A stretch of 64,000 nt of DNA, taken from contig OZ242374.1 in NCBI GenBank assembly GCA_965209055.1, forward strand, positions 4,640,001 to 4,704,000, in the 5' to 3' direction. Source of the stretch: Acidobacteriota bacterium (GTDB lineage Bacteria > Acidobacteriota > UBA6911 > RPQK01 > JAJDTT01). Of the stretch, positions 4,892 through 26,217 are shown piece after piece. A program made the translations under genes and the position numbers. A model generated the notes under the pieces. The model did no database searches. It had not been told where the DNA came from and saw only the letters and a program-made list of their open reading frames with translations. Each line of letters begins with the position of its first letter. Position 1 is the first letter of the stretch.

Positions 4892-4930
4892 TAGGAAATC
4901 CGTTGCTCTGTCCAACTGAGCTACGGGATT
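4892..4930 (-). other. tRNA 5'-half-like sequence forming the left att arm of E1
   Basis: Minus strand reads AATCCCG TA GCTC AGTTGGACA GAGC A ACGGA TTTCCTA (acceptor strand, D-arm, anticodon 5' strand, 7-nt loop); no T-arm follows. Confidence 0.75.
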
Positions 4931-4972
4931 GATCCTTTCTTTTCAACCCTTTATCCCAGTTTTTCCCTCGAA

Positions 4973-6058
4973 TCATTTCCCCTTGCTCCCGACCCGTTGC
5001 CTGTTTGTTGCCTGTTGCGTTTGTGAGTCTTCGTTAGCCTGTGCCTCTCGAATGCTCTGGAGCGCATGCGAACTGACGTACCCCGCGTAGCGCATCGTCG
5101 TGCTGATCGCAGAGTGTCCCATCAGCTTCTGCACCGTCCTCACGTCCACGCCCCGCATCAGCCAATGGCTGCAACGGAATCGCCTCAGGTCGTGAAACCC
5201 AACCTTCAATCCCACCCGCTCGGCAGCACGACGTAGAGACTTGTCGGGATTCACCCATCTTGTCCCGGTCCGGCTGTTGACGAAGACGTATGGGATGTTC
5301 AGGTAGCGAACCAGCCCGGCCAGATATCCGGCGGCGTACTTCGAGAGCGGAATCTCTCTCGGTTCGTCGTCCTTGGTGAACTCCACCCACAACATCCGCC
5401 GACTCAGGTCCACCCGGCTCCAGGTGAGCGACAACGCTTCTCCCTTTCGAATCCCCGTCTCGCCGATCACTGCGATCATGGCTTGCATGTAAGGGTTGTC
5501 TATCGCCTCGACCAGGTCGCGGAACTGTTGAACCGCCAAAGGCCGGAAGACCTTCTTCGGCTCCTTTAGTTTGGGGAACCGAACCAGCGGATGTGTGTCC
5601 ACTTCCCCACACTCCAGTGCGTAGGAAAACAGCTTGCTGATGGCCGCAATGTCGCGGTTCACTGTGGCTGGCTGGACCTGTCCCTTCCGTTTCGCGACGT
5701 AGCGGTGGAGGTCCTTGCGCTGGAATTCCTTCAGGGGAATGTTTCCCAGCATGGCGTTGAGGCTCTTGAACGAGAGCGCATAGCGGCGCAAGCAGCGCAG
5801 ACGAGGTTTGCAATACTCCTCGAAAAAACGCTCGTAGAAACTCTGGACCGTCCAGATGGTGCGTTTCCCACCGGCGAGCTCGCGCTTGAGCTGCTTCCAG
5901 GTGCCGTCCAGGATGCTCGACTCGATTCGTGTTTGAAGTGCCTGTGCGCTCCGGTAATTGGGGGCGTACATTCGGAGCCGACCGGATCCGTTCGGCCAGT
6001 ACTTGCTGACGACATACCGCTGTCTCCCCCGGCGGTCCTTCACCTTGTAGATGCCCAT
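4973..6058 (-). CDS. Tyrosine recombinase / phage-type integrase of E1
   Basis: GIRKGE (R), TKDD (K), HDLRR (HxxR), LMGH, TTMRY catalytic set; AAGGAGG RBS. Confidence 0.95.
   Translation of the reverse strand: MGIYKVKDRRGRQRYVVSKYWPNGSGRLRMYAPNYRSAQALQTRIESSILDGTWKQLKRELAGGKRTIWTVQSFYERFFEEYCKPRLRCLRRYALSFKSLNAMLGNIPLKEFQRKDLHRYVAKRKGQVQPATVNRDIAAISKLFSYALECGEVDTHPLVRFPKLKEPKKVFRPLAVQQFRDLVEAIDNPYMQAMIAVIGETGIRKGEALSLTWSRVDLSRRMLWVEFTKDDEPREIPLSKYAAGYLAGLVRYLNIPYVFVNSRTGTRWVNPDKSLRRAAERVGLKVGFHDLRRFRCSHWLMRGVDVRTVQKLMGHSAISTTMRYAGYVSSHALQSIREAQANEDSQTQQATNRQRVGSKGK
4998..5016 (+). repeat. Putative integrase arm-type site (TGCCTGTTTGTTGCCTGTT), left end of E1, inside the int 3' end
   Basis: Identical at 12759-12777 and 24762-24780, near-identical at 21847-21864; each lies 99-109 bp from a 7-bp core. 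Confidence 0.75.
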
Positions 6059-6123
6059 GCATCTCCTCCTTTCTGGATCCGGGTTCTTCGCCGTGGGGCG
6101 AATCGTACCACGGCTCCAGAGAA
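6059..6123 (-). promoter_or_regulatory. Integrase promoter/leader (extended -10 TGgTACGAT, RBS AAGGAGG, 15-bp motif CGGCGAAGAACCCGG)
   Basis: Same sequence as 22908-22972 in E2; the motif recurs at both right ends. Confidence 0.6.
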
Positions 6124-6642
6124 TCGGCGTAGGCGTTCAGGTCTTCCAAGGCGAAGCCGCGGTAGCGACTACTACCTCCAGTTTAGGGTGAATCCCTCTA
6201 AGGCGGGTGACAAAACTGTCGTCAAAGTCATTCGTAAAAAATCGCTACGCGAGTTGAAGAAGATCGACGAGGCGCGGCCGGGACTCAAATGCGGCCTGGC
6301 GCGGGGTGCCCTCATTGTCGAGCCATCCGTGCCATCGGTTCCCTTCCTCACCCAGTAATCGGCGCGGTCCTTTCCACAGCGCCCAGGGACTTTTCCACGG
6401 AAAAACGGGCGTAGTTCTCTTCTCTTCAAGTCGGTAAGAGCAAGTAGCTAGTTGCAAATAACCGAACCGGGCGGGATGTGGAAACCATCGGAAAGGGAAT
6501 CCGGACCCGGCAGGGTAATGACGGCTTCGTCACAGGCGCAGCCGGCACAGGATCAGAGCAAAGGAGGAAGAGGCTTTTAAGGGGAGGACAAACAGAGACG
6601 AGGAAGGGGTGCGGAGGCACCCGCTCGACTGAGGGAGGCATT

Positions 6643-24060: not shown

Positions 24061-24374
24061 TCCGGGCCTTCCCGCAGGGAGAATTGAGACGGGAGCGACC
24101 CCCCCAGGGGGTGTTGCGCAAATGTGAATTGCGCAACGCCCCCGCGCCCGCACCGGGCAGCAAAAAGGGGGGGTCGCTCCCGTCCACCTCCGATTTCCCC
24201 GTGCAGGCGCCGGCGTTCGGGGGTAGGGGACCGTAACTGACTGAAAGGAAAACAGATCGGGGAAAGCAGAGGTGTGAATCACCGGGACCGCCTTTTGTGA
24301 ATCCACCCCCCATGTCCCATTCACATCCCGGATCAGGCGCGAGACCCCTTGACGCACACCCGAACCGAGTCTCC
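24061..24374. other. Conserved structured non-coding block of E2
   Basis: Homologous to 11067-11380; same nested hairpins. Confidence 0.7.
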
Positions 24375-24409
24375 AAAAACCATTGCGGCACCGAGAGTGG
24401 TCATCTCGA

Positions 24410-24607
24410 TCACAACTGAGACGGAGCGATCCTCCACCCGCGGTGCGCTGCCATCCAGGAGCGCAGACCCTTGGCGGCCACATGCTCCGGATCGACACCG
24501 ACGAGGACGACCCTGTCGTCCTCGTCGGCAATCGGCAGTTTGAACGCCAAGGAGCGCCGAGTCTTCCCCACCGTGCCGTAGTACACTTGCCGGGGATGCC
24601 GATTCAT
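24410..24607 (-). CDS. Small hypothetical protein (65 aa)
   Basis: MNRHPRQVYYGTVGK...; occupies the slot held by the NucS-like gene in E1; no clear RBS. Confidence 0.35.
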   Translation of the reverse strand: MNRHPRQVYYGTVGKTRRSLAFKLPIADEDDRVVLVGVDPEHVAAKGLRSWMAAHRGWRIAPSQL

Positions 24608-24888
24608 GGGAACGTCGCGCCGTTGGAAGCCGGACACCTTCGGCCTCAGGCTGAGTCCTGCGGTGGAGCCAAACGGTCGGCAAAGCCTATCGGATAAGGT
24701 CTCTGAGCCAGGCAACGGAAGGGGGAAAACGGGCGCGGCGGCGTTCAGGAACCGATTCGGCTGCCTGTTTGTTGCCTGTTCAGTATGTCAAACATGGGGA
24801 GTCAACCACCTTACCGGTCCGGCGAAGAACCCGGTAACATATTGAAAACGTTAACGTTCGGTAGTCTTTGACTGTGAGACAGTTGGGA

Positions 24889-26217
24889 CTAACAGTCCCC
24901 CCTCCCAACCTGGCGCGGCTTGAGAAGCCGCTGGAGCCGGGGGCTCTCCTCAAGAATGATGGTCTCGGACCGGTTCGGACCGGTGGAGATGATGGAGATG
25001 TCCGCACCGGTGAGTTCGCCAAGCCGATGCAGGTAGGACTTGGCCTTCTCCGGCAGGTTTTCGTAATCCTGGATGTCGGACGTGTCCTGCTGCCAGCCGG
25101 GATGGGTCTCGTAGATGGGGCTCACGTCTTCGAGAGCTCCCACGTCGGTGGGAAAACTCGTCAACCGGCTCCCCCGGTAGCGGTAGCCGGTGCAGATCCG
25201 AAGCTCCTTCAAGTGGTCCAGAACGTCCAATTTGGTGACCACCAGCGTGTCCACGTGGTTGATCAGATTGCTGTACCGGGCCACGACGGCATCGAACCAT
25301 CCGCAACGCCGGGGCCGCCCCGTGGTGGCGCCGTACTCGACGCCCCGCTCCCGGATCTCCTCCCCTTCCGCACCCTCCAGCTCGGTGGGAAACGGGCCGC
25401 CTCCAACCCGGGTCGTATAGGCCTTGGTGATTCCCATCACTCCGTCGATGGCGCCCGGCCCCACGCCGCTGCCGGTGCAAGCTCCGCCGGCCGTGGCGTT
25501 CGAAGAGGTGACGAACGGGTAGGTGCCGTGATCCACGTCCAGCAGCGTGCCCTGGGCGCCCTCGAAGAGGATGTTCTTCCCCCGCCGGATCTCCCGGTTC
25601 AGATACTCCGCCGTGTCGGTGACATAGGAGGCGATCCGTTCGCCGATGCCCAGATAGGTCTCCTCGATCTGGTCGGTGTCCACCCCGCCGCAGCCGTAGA
25701 CCCGGTCCAGAATGCGGTTCTTCAAACCCGCATAGTTCCGGAGCTTCGAGCGAAAGAGCCGCGGTGACAACAGGTCGCCGACCCGGATGCCCCTCCGGGC
25801 CATCTTGTCCTCATAGCAGGGTCCGATGCCCCGGCTCGTGGTCCCGATCTTCGCCTTGCCCAACCGGCGTTCCTCGGCGCCCTCCAACAGCCGGTGGTAG
25901 GGCATGATCAGGTGTGCCCGGTTGCTGACATGAAGCCGCCCCCGCAAGGAAAATTCCCCCAGCGCCAGCAGCTCCTCTTCCAGAGCCACCGGATCCACGA
26001 CGACCCCGTTGCCGATGACACAAGCCTTGCCGGGGTGCAGGATCCCGGACGGGATCAGGTGGAGGACATACTTGGCGCCCGCCACCAGAACGGTGTGCCC
26101 GGCATTGTGGCCACCCTGGTAGCGAGCGACGACGTCGAAATGACGTGTCGTCAGATCGACGATTTTTCCTTTGCCTTCGTCACCCCATTGGGTGCCGACG
26201 ATCACGACGTTAGCCAT
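24889..26217 (-). CDS. purA: Adenylosuccinate synthetase
   Basis: [35 protein letters not shown]. Confidence 0.98.

Follow-up and report, generated by a model that had tools for sequence, protein, structure and literature searches.

The window analysed here, a 64,000-nucleotide stretch of an Acidobacteriota genome (positions 4,640,001 to 4,704,000 of contig OZ242374.1; G000:C1:4640001-4704000 in our labelling), contains two integrative elements, E1 (4892-12892) and E2 (21742-24895), each bounded by two copies of a short core sequence. The source genome, G000, is a single contig of 6.08 Mb, and its nearest public relatives are uncultured Acidobacteriota assembled from metagenomes. G001, G003, G004, G005, G007, G008, G010, and G035 denote comparison genomes, and e followed by a number denotes the element at that position of G000. 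In both E1 and E2 the leftmost gene, on the minus strand, is int, which encodes a tyrosine integrase. A sequence-only reading had claimed that the two integrases are about 90% identical and use almost entirely different cores, and this was borne out: the proteins are 90% identical, and direct reading gave TAGGAAA at both ends of E1 and CTAACAG at both ends of E2, with one of seven positions shared. The features of the two elements, in window positions, are as follows.

4885-4891: left stem GTGGGGG of the host hairpin split by E1 (B arm of attL), read directly; the same in the empty sites of G008 and G001
4892-4898: E1 left core TAGGAAA, the overlap copy in attL, identical to 12886-12892
4899-4930, minus strand: E1 P′ arm, relic of the 5′ half of tRNA-Arg(UCU), 28/32 positions matching
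4973-6058, minus strand: E1 tyrosine integrase, 361 aa (Pfam, PHROG, AlphaFold2 model)
4999-5012, plus strand: E1 P′ arm-type motif GCCTGTTTGTTGCC, within the 3′ end of int (motif search)
6643-12660: E1 cargo, three named open reading frames (ORFs) and small ORFs (Pfam)
6643-7698, minus strand: E1 cargo, HNH-like ORF (weak match to PF14279, E = 0.0022, below cut-off)
8025-10820, minus strand: E1 cargo, Eco57I-like methylase/endonuclease ORF (PF07669, E = 1.8e-06)
11605-12660, plus strand: E1 cargo, NucS-C-like ORF (PF01939, E = 1.7e-09)
12752-12885, plus strand: E1 conserved P arm (right end), last bases GGGA, arm-type motif at 12760-12773
12886-12892: E1 right core TAGGAAA, the overlap copy in attR, read directly
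12893-12900: right stem ACCCCCAC of the hairpin split by E1 (B′ arm), read directly and in the empty orthologues
21742-21748: E2 left core CTAACAG, read directly
21749-21780, minus strand: E2 P′ arm, relic of the tRNA-Arg 5′ half, 26/32 positions matching
21819-22907, minus strand: E2 tyrosine integrase, 362 aa by coordinates, 90% identical to the E1 integrase
21848-21861, plus strand: E2 P′ arm-type motif GCCTGTTTGTTGCC (motif search)
24755-24888, plus strand: E2 conserved P arm, arm-type motif at 24763-24776 (end alignment)
24889-24895: E2 right core CTAACAG, read directly

The junctions of E1 read GTGGGGG / TAGGAAA / TCCGTTGCTCTGTCC on the left and CTATCGGGA / TAGGAAA / ACCCCCAC on the right, and those of E2 read GTCGGGGGA / CTAACAG / TCCCGTGCTCTGTCC and CAGTTGGGA / CTAACAG / TCCCCCC. 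The ends of the two elements can be aligned right up to the core, with GGGA before the right core and TCC after the left core in both, in agreement with the conserved GG(G)A...TCC bases described earlier. Junctions of the E1 type are identical over exactly 7 bp, which is the basis of the 7-bp figure, and those of E2 are identical over 15 bp (GGGACTAACAGTCCC), not 7, because the target stem resembles the arms of the attP core. ARAGORN finds no tRNA gene in the window, so neither element lies in one; the empty orthologous sites described below identify both targets as non-tRNA hairpins.

E1 and E2 are members of a large family. A tblastn search with the E1 integrase gave 26 full-length copies in G000, with 88.6-100% protein identity and no internal stop codon in any of the 26, in addition to fragments. 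BLAST with the element ends located about 30 left and 30 right ends in the same genome, which pair into 25 complete elements with lengths of 2.7 to 25 kb; a 26th is cut by the end of the contig, and two left-end remnants and four solo right ends remain. The left and right 7-mers are the same in all 25 paired elements and unlike in none, where by our arithmetic a match at seven of seven positions would arise by chance with a frequency of 4^-7 per element. Five core classes are present: CTAACAG (nine copies, including the cut one), CTGTTAG (seven), TTGGAAA (five), TAGGAAA (four), and TTAGAAA (one). Two copies of 2,761 bp at separate loci are 100% identical, and two copies of 10-12 kb differ solely by one insertion, indicating recent movement. 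Among 41 genomes searched (E ≤ 1e-40, G000 counted) the integrase is present in 22, with 28 matches in G000, 11 in G004, and at most six in any other. The perfect duplication noted at E1 and E2 also extends to these relatives: in G003, G004, G005, and G007 the end 7-mers agree in 11 of 11 hand-matched pairs and disagree in none, with one pairing (L035/L066 of G007) uncertain owing to a degenerate right end located between the two.

At least 16 different 7-mers stand beside conserved arms in the genus, namely TAGGAAA, TAGGAAT, TTGGAAA, TTAGAAA, TTAGAAG, CTAGAAA, CTGGAAA, CTGGAAG, CTAAAAG, CTGAAAG, CTGACAG, CTAACAG, CTGTTAG, CAGGAAA, AGGAAAG, and AGGGACG. Judging from this list, most of them could be linked by single-base steps, for example TTAGAAG to TTAGAAA to TTGGAAA to TAGGAAA; CTAACAG would be one step from CTGACAG, whose reverse complement CTGTCAG is in turn one step from CTGTTAG.

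When the outer flanks of each element are joined, they form a GC-rich hairpin with the core as its loop. The rebuilt targets are GTGGGGG-TAGGAAA-ACCCCCAC for the TAGGAAA class, GGGCGA-TTGGAAA-TCGCCC (and its TTAGAAA form) for the TTGGAAA and TTAGAAA classes, and GGGGGA-CTAACAG-TCCCCC for the CTAACAG and CTGTTAG classes. CTGTTAG is the reverse complement of CTAACAG and the flanks of the two classes are related in the same way (GAAGACGGGGGGA / TCCCCCCTCCTA versus TAGGAGGGGGGA / TCCCCCCGTCTTC), so that these classes use the same hairpin in opposite orientations. Empty hairpins with a perfect 5-bp stem are abundant in G000 for several of these loops, with 133 for TTGGAAA, 21 for TTAGAAA, 13 for CTGGAAG, nine for CTAACAG, and two for TAGGAAA, compared to a mean of 0.47 and a maximum of four for 60 shuffled 7-mers. 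The targets are therefore a dispersed repeat resembling repetitive extragenic palindromes (REPs). Of the two explanations offered in the sequence-only reading, that the core had diversified to colonize different hairpin-loop variants is supported by these data, in which the cores are the loops of abundant REP-like hairpins and can be connected by single-base steps.

The orthologous empty sites show that both the E1 core and the E2 core already exist in the unoccupied target. The E1 locus is empty in G008 and G001, where it reads CAGTGGGGGTAGGAAAACCCCCACTCCCA, that is GTGGGGG-TAGGAAA-ACCCCCAC with a single TAGGAAA; in G004 the unit is repeated three times in tandem, with TAGGAAT in one unit and TAGGAAA in the other two. 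At the E2 locus, G008 and G001 both have GGGGACTAACAGTCCCC, with CTAACAG already in place as the loop. We extended the comparison to ten other G000 elements, giving 50 locus-by-genome comparisons including E1 and E2; e783016 yielded no site, as the flank search matched the distal part only. The same hairpin is kept in 12 of the 50, and the other 38 show another hairpin variant, no hairpin, or no match, so few being informative because intergenic hairpin repeats turn over quickly. The loop equals the G000 core in seven of the 12. Neutral drift predicts about 6.2 identical loops (flank identities of 0.76-0.96 raised to the seventh power and summed; our arithmetic), so the result is in line with simple divergence and contains no positive sign that cores are re-written.

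We next consider how the core is inherited. In a tree of the att arms, built without the core from 134 nt of the right and 110 nt of the left arm, the five classes require four core changes, which is the minimum, with support of 100/100 for CTAACAG and 97/93 for TAGGAAA. In G004, near C1:410818 (L084), a right arm is followed by one 7-mer, CTGGAAA, and then directly by a left, tRNA-like arm, which is an attP-like junction, as expected for a tandem insertion. Together these results indicate that the core is inherited with the att arms and belongs to attP. The int gene behaves differently from the arms. Its DNA tree has a TAGGAAA clade (99/98) and a clade of TTGGAAA and TTAGAAA (100/98), but CTAACAG and CTGTTAG are interleaved; six core changes are needed against a minimum of four, and the well-supported branches force at least three. 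E2 itself is a mosaic. Compared with the CTGTTAG-core element e2828073, at 2.828 Mb of G000, it has no mismatches across about 2.25 kb, while the first ~190 nt (core and P′ arm) and the right ends are about 30% diverged, and the two integrases have 4 differences in 359 residues, which all fall among the last 26, in the C-terminal tail. Identity between integrases of different core classes reaches 98.9%. The mosaic and the interleaved tree point to reshuffling of int genes and att cassettes by homologous recombination. Ordinary specificity drift, with cores fixed within integrase clades, had been named as what would refute that reading; such fixation holds for the att arms but not for int, copies of which have been exchanged between classes by homologous recombination. 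These sequences indicate that the integrase does not read the overlap, as nearly the same protein serves cores that differ at three of seven positions, and the paradox of near-identical integrases with different cores then dissolves.

The E1 integrase matches the Pfam family PF00589 (Phage_integrase) with 89.5 bits (cut-off 27.1; E = 2.8e-25) and PHROG 1, integrase, with E = 3.6e-54; its sequence matches in the PDB are XerC/XerD-like and HP1 integrases, and no arm-domain match was found in Pfam at E ≤ 0.01. R204, H289, R292, H315, and Y324 are invariant across an alignment of nine integrase sequences, and from the motif they are probably the catalytic R, HxxR, H/W, and tyrosine nucleophile. 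An AlphaFold2 model built from this alignment has a mean predicted local distance difference test score (pLDDT) of 78. Its N-terminus comprises strands 2-7, 13-20, and 27-32 and a helix 35-51 (pLDDT 75-82), after which come a helical domain and then the catalytic domain. Using Foldseek, we found that the model aligns with full-length lambda Int (1z1b) over 346-352 columns (E = 6e-12); XerA and Tn1549 Int are also among the matches. Furthermore, every one of the 25 elements carries the 14-nt motif GCCTGTTTGTTGCC (at most one mismatch) in both arms, oriented alike, beginning 98-100 nt past the left core and ending 112 nt ahead of the right core. The left copy falls within the last codons of int and encodes a conserved QATNRQ tail. 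The model and the motif suggest a three-domain heterobivalent integrase of the lambda type, with putative arm sites flanking a core of short inverted repeats and a 7-bp overlap.

The P′ arm indicates where the family came from. On the int strand, the stretch of 32 nt that separates int from the core resembles the 5′ half of tRNA-Arg(UCU), with 22-28 of the 32 positions matching in each of the 25 elements (28 in E1 and 26 in E2), compared to an average of 8.6 (standard deviation 2.5) for random 32-mers of the genome. In G003, the gene for an integrase with 86% identity is followed directly, on the same strand, by a complete tRNA-Arg(tct) gene. This element is about 47 kb long, and its far end consists of the conserved right arm, TTAGAAG, and a second tRNA 5′ half but no whole tRNA, where TTAGAAG is the anticodon loop on the other strand. 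Integrases with 71% identity likewise lie just upstream of complete tRNA-Arg(tct) and tRNA-Arg(tcg) genes, on the same strand, in G035 and G010. A single tRNA-Arg(TCT) gene of this kind is present in each genome of the genus and stands next to int in G003 only; in G000 no int copy is near it. The G003 relative thus has the marks of a tRNA island, insertion in a tRNA gene and a partial repeat at the far end, and E1 and E2 do not. From the tRNA-like P′ arms and these relatives, the ancestral site was the tRNA-Arg anticodon loop, where the element contributed the 5′ half of the gene. In the usual islands in tRNA genes the element supplies the 3′ part, so the arrangement here is reversed; with the 5′ half carried beside int, the rebuilt gene lies downstream of int. 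Integrases of tRNA genes are said to have been sorted into sublocation classes by Williams in 2002. Among the relatives, the L041 integrase (G004:C1:5717029-5718126; 75-80% identical) differs over residues ~12-70, as if frameshifted at the N-terminus.

Taken together, these data make it very probable that E1 and E2 are islands of a lambda-type integrase that integrate by overlap identity into hairpin loops with a matching core, and that the family originated at tRNA-Arg. The excised circle would carry an attP with the P arm, in which GCCTGTTTGTTGCC ends 112 bp before the core, followed by GGGA, the 7-bp overlap, TCC(C/G), and the P′ arm, the last being a decayed 5′ half of tRNA-Arg(UCU) in which the arm site recurs about 99 bp past the core. 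Integration would be a conservative strand exchange across the 7-bp overlap. The target would be any chromosomal site with a G-rich/C-rich inverted repeat around an identical 7-mer, and in this genus such sites would be the loops of REP-like intergenic hairpins. With no DNA synthesis involved, the two overlap copies that flank the element, one from attP and one from attB, would account for the perfect duplication. If identity is needed but the sequence itself is not read, att lineages with different overlaps could share one integrase, each being confined to one loop variant. We infer that the family started in the anticodon loop of tRNA-Arg and spread to the hairpin-loop variants via small changes of the overlap, and int genes and att cassettes would have been reshuffled among co-resident elements by homologous recombination during this spread. 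How each new overlap arose, and that the elements still excise at present and bind the arm motif, are likewise deductions from this scheme.

Several observations weigh against this scheme or limit its detail. The cleavage positions, and hence the exact 7-bp overlap, are deduced from the minimal junction identity. The target stems differ between classes (GGGCGA, GGGGGA, and GTGGGGG), so core-site recognition would have to be loose or partly structural. Pfam and PHROGs scans of small ORFs gave no excisionase or recombination directionality factor, and int is the only ORF common to all 25 elements. The public runs examined for E2 (n = 4, short contigs) contained no circle junction and no empty-site read; joints across E2 in these runs had 20-37 matching letters on the shorter side, mostly fewer than 30 and so unreliable, lay in hairpin repeats, and speak neither for nor against circles or empty sites. 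At five of the 12 informative empty sites the loop is one base off the G000 core: CTTTTAG in G008 and CTGTCAG in G001 against CTGTTAG at e5198386, TAGGAAA in G001 against TTGGAAA at e3141040, CGAACAG in G001 against CTAACAG at e3394727, and TTAGAAG in G004 against TTAGAAA at e1143772. Conversion of the loop or the core, alongside divergence, is compatible with these five. Finally, G000 is a metagenome-assembled contig with a contamination estimate of 7.4%.

These one-base differences count in favour of the alternative that cores are captured, in which mismatched overlaps are tolerated and the heteroduplex is repaired or segregated, so that the element adopts the target loop or vice versa, either routinely or when a new class is founded. 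We consider this improbable. The connection of the cores by single-base steps, as we read the list, is also in its favour, and heteroduplexes can sometimes be functional, as stated in the mv4 preprint (10.1101/2023.11.06.565760). The TTGGAAA element e3141040 sits in a hairpin with the GTGGGGG stem whose orthologue in G001 carries TAGGAAA; an empty GTGGGGG-TTGGAAA-ACCCCCAC hairpin exists in G000, however. Routine capture is contradicted by the element ends, as simple heteroduplex segregation predicts unlike end cores and none were seen in either the 25 or the 11 pairs. In addition, each core is found at several loci with a single origin on the att-arm tree, and the seven identical empty loops are about as many as the ~6.2 expected from neutral drift. 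The other proposal of the sequence-only reading, that the core is re-written to match each new target, is not supported: the cores are each common to 4-9 independent insertions and are fixed within clades of the att arms, where four changes suffice for five classes, empty sites already carry the 7-mer, and unlike ends are absent. For capture as a rare founding step of a new core class, the data decide in neither direction.

That every target is a hairpin loop, with stems that differ in sequence between classes, also raises the thought of structure-specific single-strand recombination on an extruded hairpin, as by IntI at attC or XerCD on folded CTX phage DNA, with the target loop pairing with a loop of the element; IntI4 is among the structural and sequence matches of the integrase. 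We regard this as very unlikely. Inverted repeats separated by a 7-bp spacer are the usual layout of duplex core sites according to the mv4 preprint (10.1101/2023.11.06.565760), and the inverted repeat of the attP core is only 3-4 bp (GGGA/TCC), too short for a stable hairpin. The lambda-like arm motifs in both arms, the full-length alignment of the model to lambda Int, and the presence of the core at both junctions, as two strand exchanges predict, also speak indirectly against it. Least credible of all is a target-site duplication, with the 7-mer copied from the target by staggered cuts and fill-in as by DDE transposons or casposons: identical short repeats do surround every copy and the copy number resembles that of an insertion sequence, but the sole universal gene encodes a tyrosine recombinase, an enzyme that synthesizes no DNA, terminal inverted repeats do not extend past GGGA/TCC, no transposase match was found in Pfam among the ten E1 and E2 ORFs scanned, the 7-mer is constant inside each att-arm clade over many loci, the tandem junction L084 has one 7-mer between the P and P′ arms, and the block duplicated in G003 is a whole tRNA 5′ half with its loop, not 7 bp.

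Overlap-identity integration could be carried a step further. The 7-nt loops may act as an address code, in which one integrase serves many orthogonal att cassettes and new addresses arise by mismatch-tolerant copying, in either direction, or by cassette swaps; we offer this as a speculation that is more likely wrong than right. If it were true, passing elements would help to explain loop variation at orthologous hairpins between species, and orthogonal overlaps might be favoured by limiting rearrangements between copies. The 2.7-kb members, with int as the sole recognizable gene, would then be tyrosine-recombinase counterparts of insertion sequences.

Some observations concern the hairpin repeats and the target loci in their own right. 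At G000:C1:4101366-4101700, at least seven GGGCGA-TTAGAAA-TCGCCC hairpins lie in a tandem array that repeats about every 43 bp. One orthologous hairpin has identical stems and three different loops, CTGTTAG in G000 (5198380), CTTTTAG in G008, and CTGTCAG in G001. Whole hairpin variants are also swapped at orthologous positions with compensatory stem changes, for example GGGGA/TCCCC versus GGCGA/TCGCC at the e2095937 and e349288 sites. A fully symmetric GGAG...CTCC hairpin family was considered and rejected, with only two such sites; CTCC occurs on one side only. The first three bases of the E2 right core, CTAACAG, double as the stop codon (TAG on the minus strand) of the neighbouring minus-strand ORF 24889-26217 (442 aa), which from its N-terminal motif is probably purA, encoding adenylosuccinate synthetase. 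The G001 copy of this gene seems to stop six codons sooner, at the TAG of TAGGAGG just before the hairpin. CCTCCTA follows many target hairpins, so the repeat unit often abuts a stop codon. The E2 site in G008 and G001 is the second of two adjacent hairpins (GGGGGAC-CGGAC/TTGAC-..., and GGGGAC-TAACA-GTCCCC); in G000 (window 21609-21748) the left stem of the first is joined straight to the CTAACAG core and about 40 nt are missing. This loss could be a deletion between two similar hairpins, possibly tied to element activity. At G000:C1:172945, a CTAACAG hairpin shares its left flank, in reverse complement, with the right side of the element that ends at 789049 and has a right flank equal to that of the solo right end at 484589, and could be a duplicated region or a recombination product of two att sites.

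As for the element interiors, the cargo ORFs of E1 are common to just 2-3 of the 25 elements. A block of ~290 nt is 88-95% identical between E1 (11067-11352) and E2 (24061-24347) and contains a near-perfect palindrome of 37 nt (11113-11149 and 24107-24143). ORFs overlapping this block are present in roughly 10-12 of the 25 elements and have no protein-family match; the block might act as a regulatory site or an origin, or encode a small RNA. In E2, inverted repeats of 84 nt (22974-23057 and 23967-24050; 77% complementary) surround 909 nt immediately upstream of int, and may mark a nested miniature element. The profile of G+C content at third codon positions gives no convincing second gene in E2, with weak signals at ~23860-24100 and ~24340-24580. 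An 88-aa ORF of E1 (11326-11592) and a 101-aa ORF of E2 (24410-24715) were considered as a shared excisionase and rejected, as they are not alike.

Among known systems, lambda Int is a close parallel. Overlap, or ‘site affinity’, mutants are known for this enzyme, and engineered orthogonal att pairs are used in recombinational cloning. Like lambda Int, the family here has a predicted three-domain integrase, putative arm-type sites in both arms, and a 7-bp overlap between inverted core sites for which identity is needed but the sequence is free, and as with lambda att, a different overlap alone would make two sites orthogonal for the same enzyme. The same rule is given for tyrosine recombinases in general in the mv4 preprint (10.1101/2023.11.06.565760), where overlap composition matters little, partner identity is mandatory, and heterobivalent integrases usually have 7 bp. 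Unlike lambda, the family presents a natural orthogonal set, with at least 16 7-mers in one genus and integrases that are 86-100% identical in G000, its targets are dispersed hairpins rather than one attB, and one genome holds 26 intact copies, the smallest of 2.7 kb. In mycobacteriophage Ms6, a changed 7-bp attP loop is reported to lead to retargeting to other tRNA-Ala T-loops (PMC1762012). Integrases with crossover in the anticodon loop or T loop of tRNA genes, including those of Ms6 (PMC1762012) and the Prochlorococcus tycheposons (10.1101/2020.12.28.424599), likewise use a 7-nt loop between symmetric stems as the overlap. Unlike the tRNA-targeting islands, most members here have moved to non-tRNA hairpins, and the tRNA half is decaying (22-28/32).

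The choice of target is also shared with other mobile elements. REPs are targeted by insertion sequences such as IS1397 and ISKpn1 (IS3 family) and IS621 (IS110 family), which have DDE or DEDD transposases, with a guide RNA in IS110, and no cargo. The family resembles them in inserting in the loop or centre of repeated extragenic palindromes in many copies, but differs in having a tyrosine integrase with putative arm sites and up to ~25 kb of cargo. With Tn916 and CTnDOT it shares a tyrosine recombinase that moves the element to many sites per genome, as described for IntDOT (PMC2817482); those elements tolerate heterology and leave unlike coupling sequences, whereas the ends here are identical in 25/25 and 11/11 cases. 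In the literature we found no account of tyrosine-integrase islands in the loops of REP-like hairpins, or of this Acidobacteriota family, which is not proof that none exists. The mechanism, the overlap-identity rule, is a known one, and what is unusual is the scale, the hairpin-repeat target, the tRNA 5′ half in attP, and the modular exchange of att and int. Differing cores beside near-identical integrases therefore need not mean a new mechanism. The family provides a natural genome-scale case of a rule familiar chiefly from phage genetics and from engineering, in which a change of 7 bp re-addresses an element, and it allows the move from a tRNA anticodon loop to the loops of REP-like hairpins to be traced. 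It offers candidate orthogonal att pairs for one enzyme and a system in which to measure the drift of integrase specificity. It is also a case of a site-specific integrase that acts like a multi-copy transposable element.

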